The notes: generated by a model from the letters alone, not told the origin. A stretch of 64,000 nucleotides of DNA from an uncultured Mollicutes bacterium (GCA_900545015.1 UQXJ01000003.1:15800-79799), one strand, 5' to 3'. Counted from the stretch's first letter, positions 1-61,722 are shown. Program-made: numbers and translations.

Positions 1-283
1 AAAAGCATTTTATTTTTAGGAATTTTAAGCCTATGGAATTTTATGAAAGTAATAAGAAGTAATAATTTTTCATATTACAACATTGTTATTTTAAGTAGGT
101 ATATTGTCAAAAAAAGAAAGTTTTCTATAAAAGTTCAATATTTAGATTATTAAATTTATCAATTTACTTACTTATCTGTTGAAAGATATAACGTCAAAGA
201 AATGAAAAATGTGCTGACAAAGGTTATAGCCTTAGCGGGTATATTAAACACAACTGTGATATGGTTATGAAAGGTAGAAGTTT

Positions 284-3406: not shown

Positions 3407-4541
3407 ACACGGATTAATTATGCTTGCTCTTGGTGCAATCTTATTAACTGGTTGTGGCACAAGCGAAGGCGGAAACGATGGACAAGTTACAACAATTACA
3501 GATATGGTAGGAAGAAACGTTGAAGTTAAACCAGGAAGCTATAAAAAAATAGTTTGTATTGGTGCAGGTGCTTTAAGACTTTATTCTTATATTGGTGATG
3601 TTAATTTATTAAGTGGAGTTGAAGATATTGATAACTATATATTAGAAAAAAGACCAAAAATGTTTGATACAAGTGCTAGACCATATTTTTTGGCTAATAA
3701 AGAAATCTTCAAAACACTACCATCATGTGGGGTAGGTGGACCAAATGCTCAAGCAGCTGAAGCAGAAAAGATTTTATCATGCGATCCAGATATCGTTATT
3801 TCTGAATATGAAGATGCTGATAAAGCAAATGCACTTCAAAAACAATTAGGAGTACCTGTTGTTACTGTAAAATATGGTTATAAAGGTGTTTTTGATGATG
3901 CAATTAAAAACAGTTTAAATTTACTTGGTAATATTTTTAAAGAAAAAGCAAAAGCAACTAAATTAAATAAATATATTGCTGATCAAAAAGAATTAATTTC
4001 TAAGATGACAAAAGATTTAAAATCTAAAGAATCAGTTTATATTTGTGGTTTAGGAAACTGGGGAACAACAGACCACTTAATGACTGTTCAAAATTATGAA
4101 CCATTTAATGTTGCTAATATTAATAATGTTGTTACTGATTTATCAAAAGATGGTATTCAAAAAATTGAAAAAGAAAAATTAGTATCTTTAGGCGATAAGA
4201 TCGATAAGATGATTATTGATGCTGCAGCTATTAAAAATATTAAAATGACTGACGATACTAAACTTGTTTTAAATTCAATTAAAGCTTGGAAAAATAACGA
4301 AGTTTATTTACAAATGCCATATAACGCATATTACACAAACGTTGAAACTGCATTAGCAAATACTTGGTATAATGCAAAAATTGTATATGCAGACGCCTTT
4401 AAAGATATCGATATGAAAGAAAAAGTAAATGAAATTACTAAAGCTTTTTTAAATAAAGAATTAGCAGATGAAATCTTTAGTTGCCCAACAAGTTTTGGTG
4501 GATATCAAAAAATTGATGTCGCAACTTTCTTTAATAAATAA
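3396..4541 (+). CDS. Fe-siderophore/B12-type substrate-binding lipoprotein (Peripla_BP_2-like)
   Basis: ATG at 3396 sits 8 nt after AAGGAGG (3381-3387). Signal peptide + lipobox LLTGC. KKIVCIGAGALRLYSYIG is typical of class III SBPs. The track's 3327 start is an upstream extension inside the ATPase gene. Confidence 0.85.
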   Translation: MKNKHGLIMLALGAILLTGCGTSEGGNDGQVTTITDMVGRNVEVKPGSYKKIVCIGAGALRLYSYIGDVNLLSGVEDIDNYILEKRPKMFDTSARPYFLANKEIFKTLPSCGVGGPNAQAAEAEKILSCDPDIVISEYEDADKANALQKQLGVPVVTVKYGYKGVFDDAIKNSLNLLGNIFKEKAKATKLNKYIADQKELISKMTKDLKSKESVYICGLGNWGTTDHLMTVQNYEPFNVANINNVVTDLSKDGIQKIEKEKLVSLGDKIDKMIIDAAAIKNIKMTDDTKLVLNSIKAWKNNEVYLQMPYNAYYTNVETALANTWYNAKIVYADAFKDIDMKEKVNEITKAFLNKELADEIFSCPTSFGGYQKIDVATFFNK

Positions 4542-5312: not shown

Positions 5313-8300
5313 ATGAAAAAGAAAATTATTCCGATGGTAGCATTGGCAGGTGTCTTAAGTTTTGGAGCAATCTCGTTAGCAAGTTGTAAAGAAGAAACAC
5401 CTGTAGAGCCAGTAGAATTAGAATATAAAGTCAACGTAGTAAGCGTTGAAGGAGCAACTGTTTCAACAAGCGTTGCAAAAGCTAAAAAAGGTGAAATTGT
5501 CACTGTTAATGTTAATGTTACAGATACAGATAAAACATGTTTTGGCATTTTATTAAATGATAATACAGAAGTTACTGAAGTCGAAAAAAGTAAAACTTAT
5601 TCATTTAAGATGCCTGAAAGTGACGTCAGCGTAAAAGCAAATCTTGAATTTGTTCAAAAATTCGGAGTTATGGCTAATGTTAAAGGCGATGTCGAAGGCG
5701 CAAGTATTAAAGTAGATAAAGAAGTCGCTAAAGCTGGCGAAGAAGTTGTCGTTACGGTTGAAAATACTAACGCTGAATTTAAATATTCATCAATTTCTGG
5801 ACTTCCAGAAGGATTTAAAGAAGTTGAAGCTGGCGTAAAATATTCATTTGCAATGCCAGCACATAATGTTTTCTTAACATTAGAACTTTCCAAAGTTGAA
5901 ATATTTGGTGTTACAGTTAACGCAAGTGAAGGTGGTGTAGCAAGTGTTGATAAAACTGCTTACCACGAAGGCGATGCAATTAAATTATCATTAACGGCAA
6001 ATGCACATTTTGAAGTTAAATCAGTTGTTTTTAATGGAACAAAAGTTGCTGACGATCAATTAGGCGATGAAATTAGTTTCGTTGCTGCTAAAGAAAATGT
6101 AATTGAAGTTGTATTTGAACAAACAGAATTTAAAGCAACAGTTGTTAAAGTTCTTGGCGATACAGCTTCCTTTGTTAAATCAATGAGTGGAATTGAAGAA
6201 GGAGTTTTCTATAAAGTTGGCACAAAGCAAAAAATTAGCGTTCAATTTGACTCATCATATTATGTTTCGATGTTTAAATTGCAATTTGGTGGAAAGATTT
6301 ATGCTTTTACAAAGAATGCTGATGATTCAAAAATTGGTGAATGCGAAGTAGAAATTCCTGAAAAAGATTTTTCAACATTTGTATTTAAAGATACTTACAT
6401 GTCGTTACCTGAAGAAGGGGATGAAAGTATTGTGGTAAATGTTGATGCTATGGAAGGTGTCGAAGTTGTTGGAATTATCAGTGGAACTGCTTATAAATAT
6501 AGTAGTTATTTTAGTGTTAATTTATATCTCTTTGGTGGAGATAATGGCGTAAAAGTTAAAAGTGTTACGTATTATGATGGAGATGCTGAAGTTGGAAATA
6601 AAGCCGCATTTAGAGAAATGTCAGGACAAGTCGGCGTTTCTAGCATGAAACTTACTTCAAAATCTTTGAGATTGCATTTTGATGTTGATGTTATGAGCAA
6701 GAAAACAATTTCATATGTCGGAACAGATGGTTTAGCAGAAGGATATGGACTTCCATTATCAGCATTACCAGGTGAAACAGTTAAATTAAAATATGAATTA
6801 AAAGATGGCAAAAATAAATATTTGTCACAACTTAAAGTCACTGTTAAAGGAACTGGTGAGGTAATCGACGTTACAGTTACTGGCATGAATAAAGAGTTTA
6901 TGATGCCTAATGCAGATGTTGTTGTTGAATTTGTTCTTGAAGATACACCAACAATTCAATTTGAAAAAGTAGTAGGCGTCAAGGAAGTGAAATTTTATTC
7001 AGAATCTTCTCGTAAACCTGAAGCTGAGATCTTAAAAGCAGCACCTGGAAAAACGGTTTATGGCCGTGTTGTATTAGAAGATGGATACCTTATTAATGCT
7101 GTAAAATTTGATGGTACAAATATTACAAGTAGCTGGGGCTCTAAAAACGATTTTAGCTTTAAAATGACGGCAACAGGAAAAGTCACCTTTGATGTGGAAG
7201 AAGGTGTTACTGTTAGCGTTGAAGAAGTTACTGGAGGCAAATTCCTTTTAGCAGAGGGTGAATACAATACAGCAAACTCAACAAAGTTGGTTGTTAAACA
7301 AGGCGCTACATTATATGCCAAAGTTACACCTGATACAGGTTATAAATTTGTCAAGGCTGTTGATCAAGATGGCAATGATGTTAAACTTATAGAACCTACA
7401 TCCTATTCTTACTATCATAATTACTCATTTGCGGTTGCTACAACAGCAGGAAGCAAAGCATTAACTATCACTCCAGTTTTTGAAGCATATGCTAAGTCAA
7501 CTGTTACATTAGAAGTTGATGAAAGCCTTAAAAATGATCTTAAAGCATTCAGTTTAACAGGCTCAGTAAGTAAAGCTTCATTAAGCCTTGATTCAAAAAC
7601 ATCAAGTGAGTTCTTCGTTGATGAAGAAGTTTATGGAAATATTTCATTATCAAGTGATGCTATTAAAAATAAGATTTTCAGCGTAAGTTATGTTGCTGGC
7701 GGAAAAGAAACACCATTAGAATTTAATGGTGAACAAGGCATTTATACGCCACTCAAAAACTTCAAGATTAAAGATGCAAATGTTATTTTAAAAGTAACTG
7801 CTGTAGAGAAAAAAGTTGTTGGCGTAACATGTGTGGCTCCTAAAGAAGGATTTACATTCAAATATGCAGCAGATAGAACAACTAGCGAAGAAAAATTTTT
7901 AGATAAATTGCCGGTTGTTAAAGCAGGCAATGTACTAAGAATTAAAGTTATAGGCACTGTTTCAGAAAATTGTAAATTAGCTTATAAGATTACTGATGCT
8001 AGCGATAAAGATATAACAGAAAGTTTGAGCACCTCATTTGATTCTAAATCAGGAATGTTAACAATTGATAACTTACCAAATGAAGATATAAAAGTTGTCT
8101 TTAGTGAAGTTGAAGCTGTATTTAAAACATTTAAATTAACAGACAACTTACCAGAATATTGTGAACTAGATTACGCTTTAGTTTTTGCAGGCGGTGTAAG
8201 TGTCAAAGATGGCGATAAATTCGAAGTCGCAGAAATGAATATTAGTGTAAATGCATATGATACTCGCGCAGATGGACAAGCAGCATTCACATTAACAGTT

Positions 8301-47385: not shown

Positions 47386-47400
47386 TTTCTTTATATGAAT

Positions 47401-47455
47401 GTACTAAAAAAGTACTAATAATCTACTAATAAACTACTAGATATGTACTAAAATT
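47401..47455. repeat. 5 x 11-bp phased tandem repeat, core (G/C)TACTA(A/G)
   Basis: Cores start at 47401, 47412, 47423, 47434 and 47445, exactly 11 bp apart. Lies in the gap between convergent genes. Confidence 0.9.
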
Positions 47456-48269: not shown

Positions 48270-48353
48270 GAATCAGTGGCGGAATGGTAGACGCGTTAGT
48301 TTCAGAAGCTAATGAAGAAATTCATGCAAGTTCAAGTCTTGTCTGGTTCACCA
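48270..48353 (+). tRNA. tRNA-Leu (anticodon CAG), class II with long variable arm, CCA encoded
   Basis: Acceptor GAATCAG/CTGGTTC. D arm GTGGCGGAATGGTAGACGC. Anticodon stem TTAGT/GCTAA with loop TTCAGAA. Variable arm TGAAGAAATTCATG. T arm GCAAG-TTCAAGT-CTTGT. Ends ACCA. Confidence 0.9.
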
Positions 48354-49299: not shown

Positions 49300-50454
49300 A
49301 TGATGAGATTATATTCCGATAGAGCTGGCTTTATCTATCATGTTCAATCAGATTATGATTGCTTTGTTCCAAAACCATTAGATGAAATTACTCTGAATTA
49401 CGATAAGGAGTTAATAAATTTATTAAGTGAAGCAAATAATCTAATTGGAAAATTAGATGGAATTGCTATTAATTTACCAGACAGGGATATTTTTATCTCT
49501 AAATATGTTGAGAAAGAAGCTGTTTTGTCTTCACAAATCGAAGGAACGCAAGCTTCATTATCTGATGTATTTCAATTCAATAAAATTAATGGAGAAAAAA
49601 GAAAAGAGACAGAAGAAATAGTAAATTATACGCGCGCATTAAATTACGGAATAAAACTTTTAGGAAAATTACCTATTTCAATAAGATATTTTAAGGAACT
49701 TCATAATATATTATTAGAAGGAGTTAGGGGTGAAAATAAAAATTCAGGTGAAATAAGACATTCACAAAATTGGATTGGACCGAAAGGGTGCACATTAGCT
49801 AATGCTTCGTTTGTACCACCGTCAGTTGATCTAATGAACCAAGCTTTGTATAAACTCGAAAAATATATGAATGAAGATTGTAATGTTGATGCATTACTAC
49901 GAATTGGCTTGATACATTATCAATTTGAAACTATTCATCCTTTTTTAGATGGGAATGGTAGACTTGGTAGATTATTAATTTCACTTTGGTTATACAATTT
50001 TAATTATTTAAAATACCCTTTACTCTATTTAAGCTTATATTTTAAGCAAAATAGAACCGAATATTATGGATTACTGATGGACGTTCGATTTAAAGGAAAA
50101 TATGAAGAATGGCTTAAATTTTTCTTAAGAGGCATTATTGAAATGGCTAATAACTCTATTCTTACAATAAAAAGAATTACTTCACTTAAAAAGAAAATCG
50201 AATATAGCATTTATGAATTAAAAGCAAAAAATAAAGACAATTTAATTTCTTCAATTAATTTTATTTTTAAACATCCATATTTTGATTCAAATGATTTAAG
50301 AGAATATTTAAATATTTCTAAACCTACAGTTTCTAATATTATTGGAACTCTATGTAAATTAAACGTTGTTTCTCCGACATCAAATAAGCAAAGATACATT
50401 ACATATAAATTTGATGAGTATATTACAATTTTAGAAGAAGGAACTGAAATTTAA
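49300..50454 (+). CDS. fic: Fic-family protein (AMPylase-type) with N-terminal inhibitory-helix motif and C-terminal wHTH-like region
   Basis: Fic motif HPFLDGNGRLGR. Upstream SSQIEG fits the [ST]xxxE[GN] inhibitory motif. Confidence 0.92.
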   Translation: MMRLYSDRAGFIYHVQSDYDCFVPKPLDEITLNYDKELINLLSEANNLIGKLDGIAINLPDRDIFISKYVEKEAVLSSQIEGTQASLSDVFQFNKINGEKRKETEEIVNYTRALNYGIKLLGKLPISIRYFKELHNILLEGVRGENKNSGEIRHSQNWIGPKGCTLANASFVPPSVDLMNQALYKLEKYMNEDCNVDALLRIGLIHYQFETIHPFLDGNGRLGRLLISLWLYNFNYLKYPLLYLSLYFKQNRTEYYGLLMDVRFKGKYEEWLKFFLRGIIEMANNSILTIKRITSLKKKIEYSIYELKAKNKDNLISSINFIFKHPYFDSNDLREYLNISKPTVSNIIGTLCKLNVVSPTSNKQRYITYKFDEYITILEEGTEI

Positions 50455-50605
50455 TAAGAGCGAAAATTAGCTTTAGGTTGTTTTATTTTGAGATTTTGAT
50501 AAAAACAATAATTTGGTTTCAATTAGAATTTTATTTTTATGTTAAAGAGGGATTTAAATTAAAGTAAGTCTTTAATTTTTCGTTTCAATTACGTATGAAT
50601 TTTTT

Positions 50606-50690
50606 AAAATCTCACTGAATGAAAATACAAAATCTCACTGAATAAAAATACAAAATCTCACTGAATAAAAATACAAAATCTCACTGAATG
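50606..50690. repeat. 4 x 23-bp tandem direct repeat (AAAATCTCACTGAAT[G/A]AAAATAC)
   Basis: Core AAAATCTCACTGAAT recurs with an exact 23-bp period (T of ATCTC at 50610, 50633, 50656, 50679). The array ends 4 bp before the -35. Confidence 0.92.
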
Positions 50691-50693
50691 TAA

Positions 50694-50722
50694 TTGAAGT
50701 TGTTATATCTTTTCTTTATAAT
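50694..50722 (+). promoter_or_regulatory. promoter TTGAAG -17- TATAAT
   Basis: Near-consensus hexamers with 17-bp spacing, 18 nt upstream of ATG 50740. Confidence 0.65.
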
Positions 50723-50739
50723 AAATACGAGGGAAAAGC

Positions 50740-52014
50740 ATGAATAATAAAGACTATAAAAAAAGAATAATCGACGAGACTTTAAAAAAGTATTTAGAAA
50801 CCTTTGGTGCATTATTGATTGAAGGACCAAAATGGTGTGGTAAAACCTGGACAGGCAGCAATGCATCTAACAGTGTATTTCTGTTGGCTGACCCTAAAAA
50901 TAATTTCAACAATAAGCAAATTGCTCTTCTTAATCCTGATATAGTTTTAAATGGTGACAACCCTAGATTAATTGATGAATGGCAAGAAGTGCCATCTTTA
51001 TGGGATGCTGTTAGAGGAAGAGTAGACGAAAGCGCAAAAAAAGGCCAATTTATTCTTACTGGTTCATCAGCTGTTGATAAAAGCAAATATATCCATTCAG
51101 GAACTGGAAGAATAGCTCATTTAAAGATGAGGACAATGTCTTTATATGAAAGTGGCTTTTCTGATGGTGTTATTTCTTTAAAAGATATCTGCTATGGAAC
51201 AGCAATTGATTGCTTAACACAAAATGCTTCATTAGATAAACTTATCGACTGTGTCTTGATTGGAGGCTGGCCATCTACTATTGGGATGAGCGTTGATCAA
51301 TCAATTATAGTAGCAAAAGAATACATTAAATCTGTTTTAAATGAAGATATCTATAAGGTTGACAATATTAAGAGAGATAAACACAAGGTTGAATTATTAT
51401 TAAAATCATTAGCGAGAAATGAAGCAACAACTGTAACAAATAAAACCTTAAAAAATGATATTAAAGAAAAAGATTATGACGATGTAGACGCTAATACTAT
51501 TACGAATTATTTAAATTTATTAAACGATTTATATTTAGTTGAAAATATACCTCCATATTCTTCAAGAATTCGTTCATCTTTAAGAGTTAAACAAAGTGAA
51601 AAAAGACATTTTGTGGATCCTTCTTTACCTTGTGCAATTTTGCATTTAACAAAAGATAAATTATTAAATGACTTAAATTATTTTGGTTTTCTTTTTGAAT
51701 CTATGGTTGAAAGAGACTTATTGACTTATGTCGATTCTTTTAATGCAAAGTTATATCACTATCAAGACTATGCAAATAACGAAATTGACGCTGTTATTGA
51801 ATTAGAAGATTCTTCATGGTGTGGATTTGAAATAAAATTAGGTGCCAATCAAATTGATGAAGCAGCTAAAAATCTTGTTAGAATCAACAATAAGATAATT
51901 GAAGATGGTGGGAAACCAGCAAAATCACTATGTGTTATTTGTGGTTTAGTTAATGCTGCCTATAGGCGTCCAGATGGAGTTTACGTTGTTCCTTTCATGT
52001 CTTTAAAAAACTAA
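50740..52014 (+). CDS. AAA+ ATPase (AAA_14/DUF4143 type, COG1373-like) with C-terminal PD-(D/E)xK-like motif
   Basis: Walker A GPKWCGKT, Walker B LIDEWQ. C-terminal ..NEIDAVIEL...GFEIKLG (D..ExK pattern). Confidence 0.85.
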   Translation: MNNKDYKKRIIDETLKKYLETFGALLIEGPKWCGKTWTGSNASNSVFLLADPKNNFNNKQIALLNPDIVLNGDNPRLIDEWQEVPSLWDAVRGRVDESAKKGQFILTGSSAVDKSKYIHSGTGRIAHLKMRTMSLYESGFSDGVISLKDICYGTAIDCLTQNASLDKLIDCVLIGGWPSTIGMSVDQSIIVAKEYIKSVLNEDIYKVDNIKRDKHKVELLLKSLARNEATTVTNKTLKNDIKEKDYDDVDANTITNYLNLLNDLYLVENIPPYSSRIRSSLRVKQSEKRHFVDPSLPCAILHLTKDKLLNDLNYFGFLFESMVERDLLTYVDSFNAKLYHYQDYANNEIDAVIELEDSSWCGFEIKLGANQIDEAAKNLVRINNKIIEDGGKPAKSLCVICGLVNAAYRRPDGVYVVPFMSLKN

Positions 52015-52202
52015 TATTTCGAAATGACGAAACTTATTTTTTAGGTAAAAATTGTCAACAATTAAAAGAAACTAGGAAATTATTTTGCAATTTTAGACTA
52101 AAATCAGTATTTCGACTTACAAATTGAAAAATAAAAAAATATATTAAGAGGCATTAATTAATAATTGTCTGATTTTTTAGTTTTTAATAAAATATATTCA
52201 AG

Positions 52203-54359
52203 ATGAGGGGTGAGAGAGAAAACGAAATTTATTCATCTAATGAAGACAATAAGTACGAAGAGTATTCTCTTTTTCCTGCGGAAGATTATAAAGTAAAAGA
52301 AATATTAAAAGAAGATAAAGAAAATTTTAAAGTTGATGAATTTTCTTTAGGAGAAGCACCTAAAAAAGAAGAAAAAGAGAGAATTAGTAATTTTGATAAA
52401 TTAAAAGATAATATTATTTCTCACACACCTGTAGTCGCAACAACTACATTAATTGGCGTTGTTGGAGCTTCAGTTCTTGGGTTTGTGCCTGGTGTAAGTG
52501 AAGAAATTAATTCAAAAAATCCATTTGGTACTGTAATTACTGATTCACTTGTTGATAATTCTTCATTTCACGAAATCTCCATTGAAGGAGATATGGAAGT
52601 TAGTAAAGATGTTTTACGTTATTATGCTTTAATAGAAGAATACGATGAAGAAGATAAAAAAGAAGAGTATTATGCTGAATTAAATTTTGAGAATAATCAT
52701 TTTTCATTTAGCACTGGAGCATTTTATGGCATTAAATCATATAGCTATAAAATCCTTGCTTTTAATGGAAGTGAAGCAGAAAATGCTATTTATTTTTCTT
52801 CAATAATTCCTTTTTCTTTCGACCAAAGCTATCGAGGAGATTATAAAAAATTAAAACCAACTGAAGCAAAAATCACATTTAGTGATAGTGATTCTTATAA
52901 AGTTGAAATTGATACTGAATTTCAAAGTCCTTACCCTGATATTTTTCAATATGAAGTTTCTGCTGTAACTAGAAATGGAGAAATTCTTGATAAATATGTT
53001 GGAGCTGATTCTTTAGTAACACTTAATGTTCCTTATGGAGAAGATCTTTATTTTTTATATAAAGATGTTTCTTATTTTGCTAATGATGAAATTATAAGCG
53101 ATCAATATATGACTTCTGATTATAGTGTCGTTTCTCTTCCTAATTTTTATTTTGATAATGAATTTGGATTTGATGGAACAAATTTCACGTTGTCATATCA
53201 TTTTGATACGGTTTATGAAAAAAATAACTTTAAATTAAATCTTCATTTAGATAATGAAAACGTAATTAAAGAGAAGACACTTGAAAAAATAAATAACGAA
53301 GGAACGATTGTTCTTAATGATTATAATGAGGAAATAGGAGATTTATCCGTATCAGGTGAACTTGAATTTAAAGACGATAAATTAGATAACTATGTTCACA
53401 AAGTTCCAATTATTAATAATAATTACGATATGAGATATCGACTTGAAGTGACATCATTAAGAGCAAATCTTATTGATGTAACAGATTACATTCCTTTAAA
53501 TTTTGAATTTAATTATCTTCTTCCTAATGATTATTCAATTGCTATTTATAATGAAGATAGGTCTATTGATGAAAAAATAGCATTAAAAGATTCATATTCT
53601 TTAAAAAAGATTACTTCTTTAGACGGGGGAACTATAAGTGTTTCTATTCTTAAGCCTGATGGCACAGAATTAAGAAAAGTAGGAGATTACATAATTCATA
53701 GTTTAGCTGAAGTAAAAAGTACATTTGTAGAACCAACAATTACTAATTATGTTAATCCAGGCGATTCAGTTGTAACTTATAATGAAGATAATACAGTTAA
53801 TATTTATCGAAAAGTAGGATTTTCTTCAGGTGATTCTAATATTTATTTAGATACAATGATTTATGAAACTATGTATGAAAACCCTTCAACTGGTGAAATT
53901 CGATATTTAAATGCAAAGCATAGCAAAACAACTGGCACATATTCAATTATGGAAAATCTAACTGCATTTGATTATCGCTTTATCTATTTTATTGATTATG
54001 AAAAGGACGGCGTAATTTATGAAATGAATAAAGAAGAGCCTTCTGGAACTTTAAATTTGAGTAATAGAGCGCCTGTTAGACTTGAAGTAGGGTATGATGA
54101 AACAAGCGATTCAACAAAAATTATTGTCTATAATGATTCGTATTTTAATATTATAAATTCAATTATAATTGACAGAAATTATTATTATTTTACTGATTAT
54201 ACAAAAAAAGCTAATTCTTATATTGCTTTAATTCCAGGTAATGTCAAAAATAAAATTATTGAATTAAGCATGACATTGTACGATGACAACTATGATTCTT
54301 ATTCTATCGACTGCAACCTAAAAGGTGATCGATATAAAACATATTCTTTTAATATTTAA
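52203..54359 (+). CDS. hypothetical single-pass membrane protein, large beta-rich ectodomain (718 aa)
   Basis: Acidic, K-rich N-terminal 75 aa, one TM (TPVVATTTLIGVVGASVLGFVPGV), then about 620 aa rich in Y/N/D/F with no recognised motif. There is no clear SD, so the start is uncertain. Confidence 0.6.
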   Translation: MRGERENEIYSSNEDNKYEEYSLFPAEDYKVKEILKEDKENFKVDEFSLGEAPKKEEKERISNFDKLKDNIISHTPVVATTTLIGVVGASVLGFVPGVSEEINSKNPFGTVITDSLVDNSSFHEISIEGDMEVSKDVLRYYALIEEYDEEDKKEEYYAELNFENNHFSFSTGAFYGIKSYSYKILAFNGSEAENAIYFSSIIPFSFDQSYRGDYKKLKPTEAKITFSDSDSYKVEIDTEFQSPYPDIFQYEVSAVTRNGEILDKYVGADSLVTLNVPYGEDLYFLYKDVSYFANDEIISDQYMTSDYSVVSLPNFYFDNEFGFDGTNFTLSYHFDTVYEKNNFKLNLHLDNENVIKEKTLEKINNEGTIVLNDYNEEIGDLSVSGELEFKDDKLDNYVHKVPIINNNYDMRYRLEVTSLRANLIDVTDYIPLNFEFNYLLPNDYSIAIYNEDRSIDEKIALKDSYSLKKITSLDGGTISVSILKPDGTELRKVGDYIIHSLAEVKSTFVEPTITNYVNPGDSVVTYNEDNTVNIYRKVGFSSGDSNIYLDTMIYETMYENPSTGEIRYLNAKHSKTTGTYSIMENLTAFDYRFIYFIDYEKDGVIYEMNKEEPSGTLNLSNRAPVRLEVGYDETSDSTKIIVYNDSYFNIINSIIIDRNYYYFTDYTKKANSYIALIPGNVKNKIIELSMTLYDDNYDSYSIDCNLKGDRYKTYSFNI

Positions 54360-54378
54360 ATTAAGGAGGAAAAGAATT

Positions 54379-55422
54379 ATGGAAAAGAAAAAAATGAAAG
54401 TGAGCACGTTAATTTCAACAATTTTGCTTAGCTTAGTTTTCTTTATGTTTCTTTTGACCTGCATTTTACAATTAGCTCTTCCAGAAACGAATGCTTTTGT
54501 AATTTGGTCAAAAGAAAATGTCGTTGATTTAAGTTTGATTCCAGGTATGCTTCAAGAAAACTACAAAGTTTTTATTCATTGCTTAATCTTGATTGCGTTA
54601 GTCCTTGCTTTATCAAAATTAGCAAGATTAATCTTTAAAAACATCATGCAACGTTCAAATCGAGCAAAAACAGTTATTACATTACTTGATGGACTTGTAA
54701 AATACGGAAGTGCAATTGCTTTATTTTTCCTTGTTTTAAATGCGTTTGGTGTGAACACAAAAGCTATTTGGGAATCAGTTGGAGTTATAACTCTTATTAT
54801 TGGACTTGGTGCACAATCTCTTATTGCTGATATTATCGCTGGTGTCTTTATTATTTTTGAAAATGAATATGATGTTGGCGAAATTGTTTCAATTGATGGC
54901 TTTAGAGGAACAATATCAGAAATCGGAATCAGAGCAACAAAGATTACTGATGCTGCTGGAAACATCAAAATTATTAACAATTCAGATATTAAAAATGTTG
55001 TTAATCTTTCTCGTGAATTATCATTAGCGGTCGTTGATTGTGAAGTAAGTTATGATGTTCCTATTGAACTCGTAGAAAAAATATTAAAAGATAACCTCCC
55101 TGCTATGAAAGAAAAGATTCCTCAAATCATTGAAGGCCCTTTTTATAAAGGTGTTTCTGAATATGGAACAAGCAATGTTGTTTTAAAGCTTTTTGCTAAA
55201 TGTAAAGAAGAAGATCGCTTCCAAGTTCAAAGAGATATTTTAAGAGAATATCATCGTGTCTTCTTAGAAAATGGTATTGATTTTGACTATGAACGTTTTG
55301 TAATTGAAAAGAAAGAGAAAAAAGAATATCACGTTCCTGAAAGTACAAAAGAACAAGCTGAAAGCTTTGTAGAAGAACAAAAAACTGCATCTTCAGGACT
55401 GGAAGAACAAGAGAAAAATTAA
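54379..55422 (+). CDS. mechanosensitive channel, MscS family
   Basis: ATG 54379 follows AAGGAGG. TM helices followed by LIADIIAGVFIIFENEYDVGEIVSIDGFRGTISEIGIRATKI, typical of the MscS pore/beta domain. Confidence 0.9.
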   Translation: MEKKKMKVSTLISTILLSLVFFMFLLTCILQLALPETNAFVIWSKENVVDLSLIPGMLQENYKVFIHCLILIALVLALSKLARLIFKNIMQRSNRAKTVITLLDGLVKYGSAIALFFLVLNAFGVNTKAIWESVGVITLIIGLGAQSLIADIIAGVFIIFENEYDVGEIVSIDGFRGTISEIGIRATKITDAAGNIKIINNSDIKNVVNLSRELSLAVVDCEVSYDVPIELVEKILKDNLPAMKEKIPQIIEGPFYKGVSEYGTSNVVLKLFAKCKEEDRFQVQRDILREYHRVFLENGIDFDYERFVIEKKEKKEYHVPESTKEQAESFVEEQKTASSGLEEQEKN

Positions 55423-55463
55423 TTTTTGTACGATGATAATCGTGTAATTTAATTTATTAAAAT

Positions 55464-55497
55464 TAGAGTAGGATTAAAAATGTTCTACTCTATTTTT
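55464..55497 (+). terminator. rho-independent terminator
   Basis: TAGAGTAG...CTACTCTA followed by TTTTT. Confidence 0.7.
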
Positions 55498-55665
55498 GTA
55501 GTTTGGCTGTTTTAGGTGTTTCAAAGTGAAAACTTTTATATTGAAAAGCCACTTTAATAAAAGAACAACTTTATTTAAACTTAAATTATCAATAAGCGGA
55601 GTAATCCTCAAATATTCAAAATATTTTGAACACTTTTAGGTAAAATCACTTTTTTACTCAACAAT

Positions 55666-55747
55666 TTGCGATTTTCGGCATTTCGGCTATTTCAAAAATT
55701 GCGATTTTCGGCATTTTAGTCGTTTTAAAAATTGCGATTTTCGGCAT
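55666..55747. repeat. 3 x 33-bp tandem direct repeat, core TTGCGATTTTCGGCAT
   Basis: Cores at 55666, 55699 and 55732, an exact 33-bp period. The third copy supplies the -35 hexamer. Confidence 0.92.
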
Positions 55748-55760
55748 AAAGCGTTATAAT
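55732..55760 (+). promoter_or_regulatory. promoter TTGCGA -17- TATAAT
   Basis: The hexamers and 17-bp spacing were read directly. The GGAGG RBS is at 55772-55776. Confidence 0.6.
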
Positions 55761-55784
55761 CAAGAAAAAATGGAGGTTTTATCA

Positions 55785-57125
55785 ATGGCTGAAAGAATCT
55801 TTGAACGTAAAATATATCAAAAAATGCTCAATTGGAAAAACGAATTTAATGGAAAAACTGCTCTATTAATTAAAGGAGCTAGACGTGTAGGAAAATCAAC
55901 TGTTGCAAAAGAATTTGCCGAAAAAGAGTATTCCAGTTACATTTTAATTGATTTTTCAATTGCTCCTAAAGAAGTACATAATTTATTTAGTGATATATCG
56001 AATTTAAATTATTTATTTTTAAGACTTCAACTTATATATCATGTAAATTTAGAGAATAGAAAATCTGTTATTATTTTTGATGAAGTTCAAAGAGAACCTC
56101 TTGCTAGACAAGCAATAAAACATTTGGTTAAAGATGGAAGGTACGATTATATTGAAACAGGATCTTTATTATCAATCAAAAAGAATGTAGAAAATATAGT
56201 AATTCCTAGCGAAGAAACTAGAATTGAAATGACCCCTATGGATTATGAAGAGTTTCGTTGGGCATTAGGAGATAAGGTGACAATTCCTATGTTAAAAATG
56301 GCTTTTGAAAATAAAATTCCTTTGGGTGATGATGTAAATCGCAGAATGATGAGAGATTTTAGATTATATATGCTTGTTGGAGGAATGCCACAAGTAGTAA
56401 AAGAATACATTGATACAAATAATTTTAATAAAGTTGACCAAGTTAAACGTTCTATATTAGAACTTTATGAAGATGATTTTAGAAAAATAGATTCAACAGG
56501 CAAAGCATCGTTAATGTTTTTAGCTATTCCTTCGGAGCTAGCTAAAAATACATCAAGATATCAAGTTTCAAGTGTTATTCCAGGAGAAAAGCAAGATAGA
56601 GTACTTGGAATTATTTCCGAAATGAAGGATTCTTTAACGGTTAATGTTGCATATCACGCAAATGATCCGAGTGTTGGTATGTCTTTGCATGAAGATATTA
56701 GTAAATATAAATTGTTTTTGAGTGATACAGGTTTATTTACTACGCTTGCCTTTATGGATAAAGATTTTACTGAAAATATAATATATGAAAAACTTTTAAG
56801 TGATAAATTAGATACTGACTTAGGCTACCTCTATGAAAACATGGTTGCTCAAACACTTTACGCATCAGGAAATAAATTATTTTATTACACATTCCCTAAA
56901 GACGAGTCAAAACATAATTACGAGATAGATTTTATGATTTCTAAAAAAGATAAAATTTGTCCAATAGAAGTTAAATCTTCAGGATATAAAACTCATGCAT
57001 CAATTGATGCATTTGCGACTAAATTTTCAAGTAAAATTGGTCAAAAATATCTTGTATACACTAAAGATTTAAGAAAAGATGGAGATCTTCTTTGTATCCC
57101 TATTTACATGACTATGTTTTTATAA
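55785..57125 (+). CDS. AAA+ ATPase (AAA_14/DUF4143 type) with C-terminal PD-(D/E)xK-like motif, second paralog
   Basis: Start chosen at ATG 55785 (MAERIF), 8 nt after GGAGG. Walker A GARRVGKST, Walker B IIFDEVQ. C-terminal YEIDFMI...CPIEVKSS. Confidence 0.85.
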   Translation: MAERIFERKIYQKMLNWKNEFNGKTALLIKGARRVGKSTVAKEFAEKEYSSYILIDFSIAPKEVHNLFSDISNLNYLFLRLQLIYHVNLENRKSVIIFDEVQREPLARQAIKHLVKDGRYDYIETGSLLSIKKNVENIVIPSEETRIEMTPMDYEEFRWALGDKVTIPMLKMAFENKIPLGDDVNRRMMRDFRLYMLVGGMPQVVKEYIDTNNFNKVDQVKRSILELYEDDFRKIDSTGKASLMFLAIPSELAKNTSRYQVSSVIPGEKQDRVLGIISEMKDSLTVNVAYHANDPSVGMSLHEDISKYKLFLSDTGLFTTLAFMDKDFTENIIYEKLLSDKLDTDLGYLYENMVAQTLYASGNKLFYYTFPKDESKHNYEIDFMISKKDKICPIEVKSSGYKTHASIDAFATKFSSKIGQKYLVYTKDLRKDGDLLCIPIYMTMFL

Positions 57126-59529: not shown

Positions 59530-61722
59530 TTAAAGAATGATTTTATCATCACTTGATGTAAATTCAAAACTTTTGATGTAATTCTTATATCCTTCAACGT
59601 ATGCTGCATCATATGAGCTTGCAAAATAAATTACAAAGAATGGATTGCTTTCGTCTGTAAAATCATCATAATCGCCATCGAAATCGTTATTAAACTTAGT
59701 TGCATCTGCTACTGGATAATATGGAACTTTTTTAGCAAATTCTTCTCCATAATGTTCAACTAATCCTTTATATGAATTTTTTGAAAATGAAGATGAAACT
59801 TGATCCCAAGTTTTAAATGTTCCAGTTTCTCCAGCAGAATCTTTAATTGCTTTTTCTAGATTAGCTTTTAAAGTTTCATTAATTGCAGTTGATTCATAAC
59901 TAAATGAAATTTCTTCAGTTGATAAACCATAAGAATAAGTAATGTTGCTGATTTTATTATCACTAATTTTCATTTCAAAAGTAGAAGGATCAATTGTTAA
60001 TGGATTGAGTGAAAAACCAATAGTTGAACCAATATTTATAATATCGTTATATGTAGCAAGAGTGTTTTCATCTTTTTTAAATAAAACTTCGCTAGAAATA
60101 TCAAAATTAATAAAATCTTTAAGAGTTTTATCTTTAATTGGCTCGCCAATTAGTTGAACACTGTTATCTTCTTTGTAATTGAATTTATAAATTGTGCCAT
60201 CTTTTTGATAAAAACCTTCATATTCTGATTTTTCAAAAGTCTTGTTTTCTCCTGAAATGACATAAGTTGGTTTAAGAATGTAATTTGAACCTTTGATAAA
60301 ATAAGTTTCACGTGTTCCACCCCATGCTGCATCAATTGTTTTAGCGACAAATGTGCTATCATCATTTTTGATGATATTAAGCATATCTTTAATTTCTTTA
60401 TCATCTTTAGAAGCAGACTTTTTAGTGTTTTCTTCAATAATATTAGGTTCTTTTAAAACTTTTGTATTAATCCATCTATAGAAATAATCGTTTGTATCTT
60501 TATCAAGTAAAATTCCTGTATAGAAATTCATTTCACTAACGCTACCTGATTCATCTAAAGTAACTTTAATTTCTTGACATTTCCAACTATAGATTTTTGA
60601 ATCTTGAGTGATTGAATAAGCTAAGCGTGATGCATCTTCACCAACATAAGTGTAAGAAGTGTCAGTATCATAAAGTTTTACAAATTTATCTAATTCAAAA
60701 TCGTTTTTAGAAACGAATCCAAATTCACTATAATTTTTGGTTGTTTCTTCTTCAATTAACTCGTTTTTAGCATTAACACCAACCTTCTTTAAAGTACCTG
60801 TTTCATCAACTCTTTTATAAGTTAAACTTGAAGTTTTAGTGCCATCTTCAAAGTCTTCAACTGAGATATAATTATTATAAATATCAAGGTTAGTTTTCTT
60901 GACTTCTAAAGCGGTTAAATTACCACCACCTGCTAAAGTAACGTCCGAAATTGTTGAAACAAATGAAACGTTATTAAATAGGTTGTTTGCTTTATTTAAT
61001 AAGCTTTCTGCAGGCTTTTTGAATGAATTTACGTAATTTTCAACGATATCAATCTTTGAATTACCGATATTTTTAACTGTAACTTTACCACCAACATCGA
61101 TAGTATAATAGTCATCAATTTCTTTATCATAGTCTTGGAATTCAAGTACTAAATCTTTGTCACTATTTAAAGAAATTTTGACTCTTTTTATGCCATAAAA
61201 ATCTAATTGAGCTGAGAAAATATTGATGATATTTTCGTCACTAATTATGAATTCACTATCGATATTTTCTTCTGAATTTAAAACATTAGTTGAAGTAAAT
61301 TTTGGTAAATTTCTTAAAGCATTTCCTTTATTTAAATCAGTAACTTTTTGACTTGTATATTCTTCATTAAAGGATTGCCCTTTAATATTTACTTTATTAT
61401 TTGCGATTTCAAAATCATATGAATAAGTATTTTCACCGTATGTATTTAATAAAATTGATCCTAAATTTAAATATGAAACGTAATAATATTTGCTTGTGAC
61501 AACATCTTCATATTTAATTGAACTGATTTCGTAACTTAATGTAAAATTACCATTTTTAAGATCGTTTAAATGTTTAAAAATTAGTTCTTTTGTAGTTAAT
61601 TCTGGAGTTGGTTCAGGGTTTGGTTTTGGGTCTGGAGTAACTATATCATCTCCTTTTGAACCACAGCTAATTGATGAGAAAGTAATTGCGGATAAAATTA
61701 ATAATGCTGCTAATTTTTTCAT
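59530..61722 (-). CDS. lipoprotein, two-lobe paralog family member (730 aa)
   Basis: Lipobox SISC followed by a Pro-rich linker. Family landmarks NDLKNGNFTLSYEI.., ..VKNIGNSKI.., ..NNLFNNVSFVSTI. Confidence 0.8.
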   Translation of the reverse strand: MKKLAALLILSAITFSSISCGSKGDDIVTPDPKPNPEPTPELTTKELIFKHLNDLKNGNFTLSYEISSIKYEDVVTSKYYYVSYLNLGSILLNTYGENTYSYDFEIANNKVNIKGQSFNEEYTSQKVTDLNKGNALRNLPKFTSTNVLNSEENIDSEFIISDENIINIFSAQLDFYGIKRVKISLNSDKDLVLEFQDYDKEIDDYYTIDVGGKVTVKNIGNSKIDIVENYVNSFKKPAESLLNKANNLFNNVSFVSTISDVTLAGGGNLTALEVKKTNLDIYNNYISVEDFEDGTKTSSLTYKRVDETGTLKKVGVNAKNELIEEETTKNYSEFGFVSKNDFELDKFVKLYDTDTSYTYVGEDASRLAYSITQDSKIYSWKCQEIKVTLDESGSVSEMNFYTGILLDKDTNDYFYRWINTKVLKEPNIIEENTKKSASKDDKEIKDMLNIIKNDDSTFVAKTIDAAWGGTRETYFIKGSNYILKPTYVISGENKTFEKSEYEGFYQKDGTIYKFNYKEDNSVQLIGEPIKDKTLKDFINFDISSEVLFKKDENTLATYNDIINIGSTIGFSLNPLTIDPSTFEMKISDNKISNITYSYGLSTEEISFSYESTAINETLKANLEKAIKDSAGETGTFKTWDQVSSSFSKNSYKGLVEHYGEEFAKKVPYYPVADATKFNNDFDGDYDDFTDESNPFFVIYFASSYDAAYVEGYKNYIKSFEFTSSDDKIIL

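Follow-up and report, generated by a model that had tools for sequence, protein, structure and literature searches.

Two genes in a 64,000-nucleotide stretch of genome from an uncultured Mollicutes bacterium (GCA_900545015.1, UQXJ01000003.1:15800-79799; hereafter the window) encode proteins that combine an ATPase with a PD-(D/E)xK nuclease domain, and each gene is preceded by its own array of short, directly repeated cores set at a fixed distance from one another. Arrays with the same clade-specific spacing, 23 bp for relatives of the first gene and about 33 bp for relatives of the second, recur in front of these genes in a wide range of hosts, so that a functional link between array and gene is a near certainty. 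The explanation that we favour, and which sequence comparison and structure modelling make probable rather than assured, is that each array is the binding platform of the protein encoded immediately downstream, with cognate binding coupled to autoregulation.

The two genes and their upstream arrays

The features on which the argument rests are listed below, with positions counted from the first letter of the window and the strand in brackets.

50606-50689 (+): array 1, four 15-nt cores; Tandem Repeats Finder (TRF) score 161; cores unique in the window; 23-bp layout before 68 of 82 relatives
50694-50722 (+): promoter-like TTGAAG-17-TATAAT, 4 bp past core 4 of array 1; consensus scan, 10 of 12 matches
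50740-52014 (+): gene 1, 424 aa; Pfam AAA_14 (1.8e-13) and DUF4143 (4e-34); PADLOC PDC-S01 (2.8e-60)
55663-55747 (+): array 2, three 16-19-nt cores; TRF score 122; repeat family D4; 32-34-bp period before 61 of 77 relatives
55732-55760 (+): promoter-like TTGCGA-17-TATAAT, whose -35 hexamer opens core 3 of array 2; 10 of 12 matches in the consensus scan
55785-57125 (+): gene 2, 446 aa, from a distant clade of the same family; AAA_14 (1.7e-21) and DUF4143 (1.2e-15); PDC-S01 (6.4e-96)

Array 1 is made up of four exact copies of the 15-nt core AAAATCTCACTGAAT, starting at 50606, 50629, 50652 and 50675 and separated by 8-nt spacers, which gives a period of exactly 23 bp (TRF: 3.7 × 23 bp, 98% matches). 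Array 2 holds three exact copies of the core TTGCGATTTTCGGCAT at 55666, 55699 and 55732, with a 33-bp period and spacers that are dissimilar (TRF: 2.7 × 33 bp at 55658-55747), and it corresponds to direct-repeat family D4 in the repeat listing for the window. The two arrays have the top two TRF scores among the 71 rows returned for the 64 kb. Neither core has an exact copy elsewhere in the window, and near copies of either are no more frequent there than chance allows. The first-pass annotation of this DNA had claimed a promoter-proximal repeat array of its own for each of the two genes, and both arrays and both promoter-like sites were found where it had placed them. Matches to the promoter consensus are not enriched across the region (36 found against 42.5 expected), and the promoter-like sites therefore count by their position only.

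Other details of that annotation did not survive closer inspection. A supposed inverted extra copy of the repeat (TGAGATTTT) at 50489 is attributable to chance, as the 9-mer AAAATCTCA occurs five times outside the array against an expectation of 3.5, and the copy sits outside the conserved array-gene module described below. The motif AAAATC(T/G)CA, proposed as common to both arrays, lacks statistical or comparative support because the cores vary freely among relatives. Nor would the binding sites line up on one face of the DNA, as had been suggested: 23 bp corresponds to 2.19 helical turns and 33 bp to 3.14, so that successive sites are rotated by approximately 69 and 51 degrees, respectively, in relaxed B-DNA.

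For both proteins, the annotated layout of an ATPase followed by a PD-(D/E)xK domain was upheld by Pfam matches and invariant motifs and, for the gene 1 protein, by structural matches to nucleases found with Foldseek. The bit scores for AAA_14 (PF13173) and DUF4143 (PF13635) are 51.1 and 118.1 for gene 1, and 77 and 58 for gene 2, against gathering cut-offs of 27 and 28.1 bits. In an alignment of 33 relatives with 40-67% identity, the gene 1 protein has invariant Walker A (G29/G34/K35/T36), Walker B (D79/E80) and nuclease (E320/D350/E364/K366) residues, and the C-terminal D...E.K motif whose conservation had been proposed as a check is thus invariant in family alignments. The gene 2 protein, for which the start at 55785 agrees with 446-aa database homologs, carries the corresponding motifs G31-K37-S38 (Walker A), D99-E100 (Walker B) and E351/D382/E395/K397, the last of which align to the four gene 1 nuclease residues in a profile alignment. 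By their E...D...ExK motif, which in the gene 1 model is carried on the characteristic fold, the proteins qualify as putative nucleases of the PD-(D/E)xK superfamily. A sequence search of the Protein Data Bank (PDB) returned no match for either.

The two genes had been called paralogs, which is accurate in that they belong to the same family, although they are related only distantly (BLASTP E = 0.001 over 83 residues; hhalign probability 96.8% over 360 columns), fall into separate clades and have arrays of different period. Their proposed candidacy for a role in defence was borne out by a PADLOC scan, in which both match PDC-S01, a listed candidate: gene 1 through model PDLC04790 (2.8e-60), and gene 2 through PDLC04786 (6.4e-96) and PDLC04792 (2.2e-95).

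Conservation of the arrays among relatives

The gene-1 clade was surveyed with one genome per species, giving 80 loci with relatives of 41-71% identity; further paralogs inside these loci widen the range to 34% identity, and 82 genes were examined for upstream repeats. Their hosts span six bacterial phyla as well as archaea, and include Firmicutes, Bacteroidota, Spirochaetota, Actinomycetota, Fibrobacterota, Succinatimonas, Acholeplasma- and Izemoplasma-like bacteria, and archaea of the Methanomethylophilus/Methanomassiliicoccales group. A TRF tandem repeat lies within 350 nt upstream of 63 of the 82 genes, almost always with a period of exactly 23, 46 or 69. The upstream windows, 30.5 kb in total, contain 64 repeats with these periods, compared with four of period 23 in the remaining 733 kb, a density roughly 400-fold above that in the rest of the same loci. 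By autocorrelation, which is the more sensitive test, the best lag is 23 or 46 in 68 of the 82. The spacing is always 23 bp in Firmicutes, Bacteroidota, Spirochaetota, Actinomycetota, Fibrobacterota and Succinatimonas, and arrays of this period are also present on five archaeal contigs from metagenome-assembled genomes (L047, L053, L057, L068 and L069).

For the gene-2 clade, 78 loci (25-67% identity) were drawn from a viral-contig collection and supplemented with three paralogs from the first set. The collection consists of unannotated metagenomic fragments, and the "viral" label of these loci (L081-L158) is untrustworthy, so that no link to phages can be claimed from it. In 61 of 77 gene-2-type loci, autocorrelation is strongest at a lag of 32-34. 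Of 554 control upstream regions taken from the same loci, only 42 score above the threshold, whatever the lag; they do not cluster at 23 or 33, and no single lag turns up more than five times. Arrays typically have three or four cores (range two to six). The check that the annotation itself had proposed, enrichment of upstream repeats elsewhere in the family, therefore came out in its favour: upstream arrays are a conserved, clade-wide feature of both clades and are absent from controls. Other repeats with periods of 22-24 (at L036, L030 and other loci) were set aside as background, their neighbours being CstA, PI-PLC and unknown proteins, with no gene of the family beside them.

One gene-1-type gene in an organism convenient for experiments is on a plasmid of the type strain Collinsella aerofaciens ATCC 25986 (NZ_CP048434.1; locus L184:4180-4295). 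Its product is 41% identical to the gene 1 protein, and its array has three cores resembling AATCTGGTTAA set 23 bp apart, with one more at 27 bp. Just upstream lies a gene for a small helix-turn-helix regulator.

The arrays lie close to the gene, the median distance from the start of the last core to the start codon being 56-58 nt. Their relation to the promoter is variable: in many Firmicutes loci the last core falls between the -35 and -10 elements, at L085 the first core is inside the promoter spacer with the remaining cores downstream, and at L072 the last core extends to the start codon. The 33-bp arrays of L082-L114, gene-2-type loci that are probably from Bacteroidota, stop approximately 10-15 nt before a TAnnTTTG sequence (e.g., TATCTTTG). 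TAnnTTTG is the Bacteroides-type -7 promoter box, which indicates that the promoter-proximal position is kept under a different promoter architecture.

Within arrays, the 12-16-nt cores are about 0.9 identical, compared with spacer identities of about 0.6 in 23-bp arrays and 0.3 in 33-bp arrays. The latter value is about the level of unrelated sequence by our own estimate rather than by calculation. Given such dissimilar spacers, the 33-bp arrays are not recent products of slippage, and selection holds short cores at a fixed distance. The cores themselves are specific to lineages, as illustrated by AATCTCACCGAA, AAATATGGGTCA, TTGCATTCTGCA and, in an archaeon, AAATTTGCCCTA, and all core copies within one array change together. 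At locus L162, where a protein with 83% identity to that of gene 1 is encoded in another genomic context, six copies of AAAATCATACGGAAT take the place of the four copies of AAAATCTCACTGAAT in the window. Paralogs standing side by side (L001, L045 and L079) each have their own, different core. What is conserved is the spacing and the repetition, not the sequence of the core.

Copy number can differ even where the protein is the same. Locus L161 (Logan SRR18498617; cores at 1662-1700 and 6676-6725) encodes an identical gene 1 protein and has 2 + 2 cores compared with 4 + 3 in the window. Its junction sequences are incompatible with a simple k-mer collapse of the longer form, although an assembly artefact remains an alternative to true variation. 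In ten further contigs array 2 has three cores, and in three of these (L190, L192 and L193) an interval of 34 bp replaces one of the 33-bp intervals. The core number of L161 and the 34-bp intervals of these three contigs represent either a strain polymorphism in copy number and spacing or an assembly artefact.

Array and gene also behave as one unit in comparisons of DNA sequence. The homology between the window and L162 is confined to 50606-52012: it opens on the array's first base and closes at the stop codon, and the neighbouring genes differ. In none of the 156 gene-1-type pairs that could be aligned does the alignment reach more than 50 nt past the far edge of the array, and in 96 of them it stops within 10 nt of the stop codon. 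The gene-2 clade has the same two clusters of boundaries, along with some syntenic pairs. Such boundaries are expected equally if a minimal cassette was transferred or if selection acts on array and gene alone. No second gene travels with the module, which leaves the encoded protein as the only conserved candidate to act in trans, and the presence of arrays in archaea, probable Bacteroidota and Firmicutes argues against a host factor. A look-up of the exact MscS protein encoded between the two window genes, made to find empty sites or alternative contexts, returned the same context only.

A Hallerella sp. contig (L001, CAVJFO010000019.1) encodes three gene-1-type paralogs within 6 kb, and every paralog that could be read has its own 23-bp array. 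In the segment L001:3963-5932, a near-exact duplicate of the 95-bp array that belongs to paralog 2 (4005-4097) is present at 5833-5932. Between the two lie a short unannotated stretch, a different array and paralog 3, and the second copy faces no gene.

A putative repeat-reading domain and a proposed function of the arrays

An AlphaFold2 model of the gene 1 protein, built on 41 sequences, reached a predicted template modelling (pTM) score of 0.81 with residues 130-424 confident. It suggests a layout of AAA+ ATPase, helical lid, winged helix and PD-(D/E)xK nuclease. The winged helix spans approximately residues 214-292, with helices at 214-226, 234-245 and 251-263 followed by strands, a pLDDT score (predicted local distance difference test) of about 85-95, and a conserved basic stretch in the wing (278-289). 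In Foldseek searches of the PDB, the model matched the winged-helix regulators Fur, PerR, CzrA and PadR over approximately 85-128 residues with probabilities of 0.93-1.0, as well as the PD-(D/E)xK effectors Card1 and Can2. Further matches were to the archaeal AAA+ proteins SSO1545 and PAB2304, to Orc1/Cdc6 bound to origin DNA (2qby, 2v1u) and to NB-ARC/STAND proteins; those to the AAA+ part (2fna, 2qen, 2qby and NB-ARC) concern a region where the model is of low confidence (residues 33-123). The modelled fold accordingly has the features of a winged-helix DNA-binding domain, which would be the part of the protein in contact with DNA.

A comparison with the L162 relative, whose cores differ, points to the same domain. 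Eight of the ten substitutions in the winged helix (214-292) lie in residues 249-262, comprising a loop and the third helix, and residues 214-248 are identical between the two proteins. Across the clade, we scanned the protein in 14-residue windows for the partial correlation between local protein identity and similarity of the repeat unit, with overall identity controlled. In 60 gene-1-type proteins, all of the ten highest-ranking windows, out of 411, begin at residues 239-249, and the window 249-262 gives r = 0.153 (permutation p ~0.001). In the gene-2 clade (41 proteins), the segment 260-275, equivalent to the gene 1 helix by profile alignment, is among the top windows. Covariation at the level of whole regions was weakly informative and a per-column scan was noisy, and only the sliding windows localised the signal. 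This unbiased localisation agrees with the recognition helix predicted from structure.

From the winged helix in the model, the covariation between helix and repeat, and the overlap of arrays with promoters, we infer both binding and autoregulation, and we infer likewise that the protein oligomerises on DNA and in which direction it regulates. One protomer would read one asymmetric core via the third, or recognition, helix of its winged helix, and protomers would assemble head to tail in the manner of AAA+ proteins, an arrangement in keeping with repeats that are direct and not inverted. How far apart the core centres lie, 23 bp in the gene-1 clade and approximately 33 bp in the gene-2 clade, would be set by the geometry of the oligomer. 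As the array abuts the promoter or overlaps it, with promoter elements overlapped in most loci, its occupancy would in turn affect transcription of the gene, most likely by repressing it. The module of array, promoter and gene would then be self-contained and could work after transfer into any host.

Several observations weigh against this proposal. The covariation is small (r ~0.15-0.17) and shared ancestry is only partly controlled in it. In the gene-2 clade, a lid segment at residues 161-180 (KVTIPMLKMAFENKIP; 56265-56324 in the window) forms a second peak of equal height, which a model of recognition by a single helix does not explain. Array 1 of the window lies wholly upstream of the -35 element, a placement more typical of activators, and the direction of regulation may differ between loci. 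Spacings of 23 or 33 bp amount to 78 or 112 Å of straight DNA, which is long for adjacent AAA+ protomers, and the DNA would therefore have to bend or wrap. The N-terminal ATPase part of the gene 1 model is weak, with a pLDDT below 50 for residues 33-123, and a model of the gene 2 protein built on 86-98%-identical sequences had a pLDDT of 34 and was discarded. Finally, no periodic arrays were seen before family members of other clades that are located in the same loci or in viral contigs, namely two PDLC04787-type lineages and one canonical PDLC04790-type gene (L040:235-1395; L023:967-2196; L064:3676-4956; L164-L183). This absence rests on few lineages: a scan of the viral contigs seeded with the PDLC04790-type protein of L040 yielded no relatives, and the PDLC04787-type scan a single close lineage, without an array. 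The arrays are thus specific to certain PDC-S01 clades and not universal in the family.

Four other explanations were weighed against the favoured one. It is possible, if on balance unlikely, that the array is mainly a platform for assembly or parking, on which the ATPase-nuclease would be held as an inactive oligomer, or licensed, to be released or activated on infection, with any effect on transcription secondary. The protein thought to bind the array is, after all, the presumed effector itself, with invariant catalytic residues, and not a dedicated regulator; that the spacing is exact in bacteria and archaea alike hints at a higher-order complex of defined form, and it stays constant whether the array lies upstream of the promoter, overlaps it or lies downstream. 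Pure docking, however, would not require that all arrays be near a promoter, as they are, and a single site per genome holds only two to six protomers. We regard as improbable a role of the array as a recombination or insertion site, with array and gene forming a mobile cassette moved with the help of its own nuclease and ATPase. Homology between unrelated contexts that starts with the array's first base and ends at the stop codon is what such a cassette would leave, the family is widely spread by horizontal transfer (PMC12988326), core number differs among strains with an identical protein, and the 95-bp array on the Hallerella contig is duplicated on both sides of a segment containing another paralog. 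Sharp edges are nonetheless equally expected if selection acts on array and gene while neutral flanks diverge, no second end, inverted repeat or target-site duplication was found downstream of the genes, the Hallerella case is a single one, and no empty sites were recovered.

Less probable still is a replication origin, in which the arrays would be iterons and the AAA+/winged-helix protein the initiator of an integrated or defunct replicon. The order of three to four direct repeats of about 22 bp, promoter and gene does resemble that of minimal iteron replicons, and the Foldseek likeness to origin-bound Orc1/Cdc6 is in keeping with it. Beyond the direct repeats beside the gene, the hallmarks of such replicons are missing: there is no Rep-family domain among the Pfam matches and the nuclease domain is conserved, no conserved unwinding element or DnaA box accompanies the array, with homology starting at the first core, and several paralogs can stand side by side in one chromosome (L001). 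Of 72,556 plasmids, 10 carry gene-1-type genes and 36 carry gene-2-type genes; all of these are at least 23 kb long, and none is a small replicon. An origin in neutral slippage, unrelated sites for host regulators or a structured leader RNA is scarcely credible and has been largely refuted. Tandem repeats do arise easily in AT-rich intergenic DNA and copy number does vary, but the same period occurs in many phyla and in archaea with different cores, the spacers of 33-bp arrays are about as dissimilar as unrelated sequence, the controls lack such repeats, and the repeat co-varies with a helix of the encoded protein. As for RNA, folding of the two arrays is no better than that of shuffled sequence (z = +1.49 and -0.61) and an Rfam scan gave no match at either. 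A CRISPR array was rejected separately, as there are only 2-6 units with 12-19-nt cores where many repeats of 23-47 nt with unique spacers, accompanied by cas genes or a leader, are expected; no cas-like domains were detected in the nine neighbouring proteins scanned, and Rfam was silent at the arrays for CRISPR as well.

Cognate binding with autoregulation consequently remains the explanation that we prefer. It can be taken further, with considerable doubt, to a picture in which the array is both the molecular ruler and the resting dock of an immune sensor, the docked protein being repressed and inactive at once. Were this so, displacement of the docked protein by infection or by loss of the locus would raise expression and free the nuclease simultaneously, and array and gene would be a host-indifferent, possibly self-mobilising unit, which would explain its spread through bacteria and archaea.

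Genomic neighbourhood, significance and comparison with known systems

Two further features border the modules in the window.

49300-50454 (+): Fic-domain gene, outside the conserved module; PADLOC SoFic (2.5e-112)
55464-55492 (+): terminator-like hairpin after the MscS gene; consensus scan

The hairpin sets gene 2 apart from the upstream MscS gene as a transcription unit of its own. The Fic gene is placed outside the module because DNA homology with the relative in another context begins only at 50606; the C-terminus of its product has a weak MarR-like winged-helix match. Together with the two PDC-S01 genes it makes three defence-type genes within 8 kb, downstream of a tRNA-Leu (48270-48353). 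The first-pass annotation had described this neighbourhood as an island that also carries Fic, and the Fic assignment stands, but the G+C content is flat at 25-33% and provides no compositional sign of an island. An open reading frame of 718 aa (52203-54359), between gene 1 and the MscS gene and apparently co-transcribed with the latter, and another of 730 aa (59530-61722) match nothing in Pfam or PADLOC. The tandem repeat that ranks third in the window (47398-47453; period 11/22, TRF score 77), with units like GTACTAAAAAA and CTACTAATAAA, fills a 68-bp gap between convergent ABC-transporter and Sir2 genes and has no evident function.

A survey of the PD-(D/E)xK superfamily includes DUF4143 among its families, without an assigned function (PMC3424549). 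PDC-S01, in which a PD-(D/E)xK domain is joined to an ATPase, is very abundant in bacteria and archaea, with transfer between the domains, and one survey ranks it as the fourth most common defence candidate across prokaryotes, with approximately 39,000 instances (PMC12988326); in rumen genomes it is the most frequent individual defence locus (PMC13356809). The PDCs are candidates for which validation is mostly pending (PMC12988326; 10.1101/2024.01.29.577857), and the preprint that introduced them does not treat PDC-S01 individually in its main text (10.1101/2024.01.29.577857). Full-text searches of the literature on DUF4143, PDC-S01, COG1373, PF13635/PF13173 and AAA_14 turned up nothing on repeats upstream of these genes, on a winged helix or on autoregulation, in line with the annotation's remark that it knew of no description of such arrays for this family.

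A conserved, clade-specific cis element offers a first concrete handle on an abundant and uncharacterised family. It predicts that the protein is a sequence-specific DNA binder, that residues 249-262 of the gene 1 protein set its specificity, and that it assembles on DNA at fixed spacing. These predictions are open to simple assays in culturable carriers, such as C. aerofaciens ATCC 25986 with its plasmid, or Catenibacterium mitsuokai. Candidate genes cloned with or without their arrays may behave differently in defence screens, and the arrays have a bearing on annotation too. Operators whose spacing is exactly the same in bacteria and archaea, but whose sequence is free to change, would also make a clean natural example of co-evolution between protein and DNA.

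Among known systems, the nearest is PDC-S01 itself, whose models both window proteins match. That group is defined by protein models only, and the arrays mark only some of the clades within it. Theta-plasmid iterons are direct repeats of approximately 22 bp upstream of rep, and the likeness to iterons and Rep is considerable: three to six direct repeats of about 20-23 bp before the gene of the presumed binder, overlap with the promoter that leads to autoregulation, and repeat and protein that evolve together. In contrast to these, the genes described here include no Rep member, are chromosomal, often multicopy and rare on plasmids, and have no conserved unwinding region. Archaeal Orc1/Cdc6 proteins resemble the gene 1 model in having AAA+, lid and winged-helix parts, and they read repeated DNA elements beside their own gene. 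Their origin recognition box (ORB) elements flank the unwinding element, commonly as inverted repeats, whereas here the repeats are direct, tightly spaced and at the promoter, and the protein has an additional C-terminal nuclease.

MalT is an ATP-dependent, oligomerising STAND nucleoside triphosphatase (NTPase) that binds cooperatively to directly repeated boxes next to the -35 element; it controls other operons and has no nuclease domain. An oligomerising NTPase with a DNA-binding domain acting at direct repeats is close to what is proposed here, and the Foldseek matches to NB-ARC/STAND proteins point the same way. The difference is that the only known target of the proteins in this study would be their own promoter, and that most configurations suggest repression. 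Regulators of the BrxR/CapW and C-protein types are small separate proteins, often with palindromic sites. The arrays share with the operators of restriction-modification C proteins, of BrxR/CapW and of RptR (as outlined in PMC12255303) a position at the promoter of a defence locus, where such operators keep expression in check, but here DNA binding would fall to the putative effector itself, at direct repeats that are asymmetric and have a fixed, long spacing. The system differs from iterons, Orc1/Cdc6, MalT and defence operators, then, in the combination of an effector with its own predicted DNA-binding domain, an exact and clade-specific spacing of repeats, and a probable target in its own promoter.

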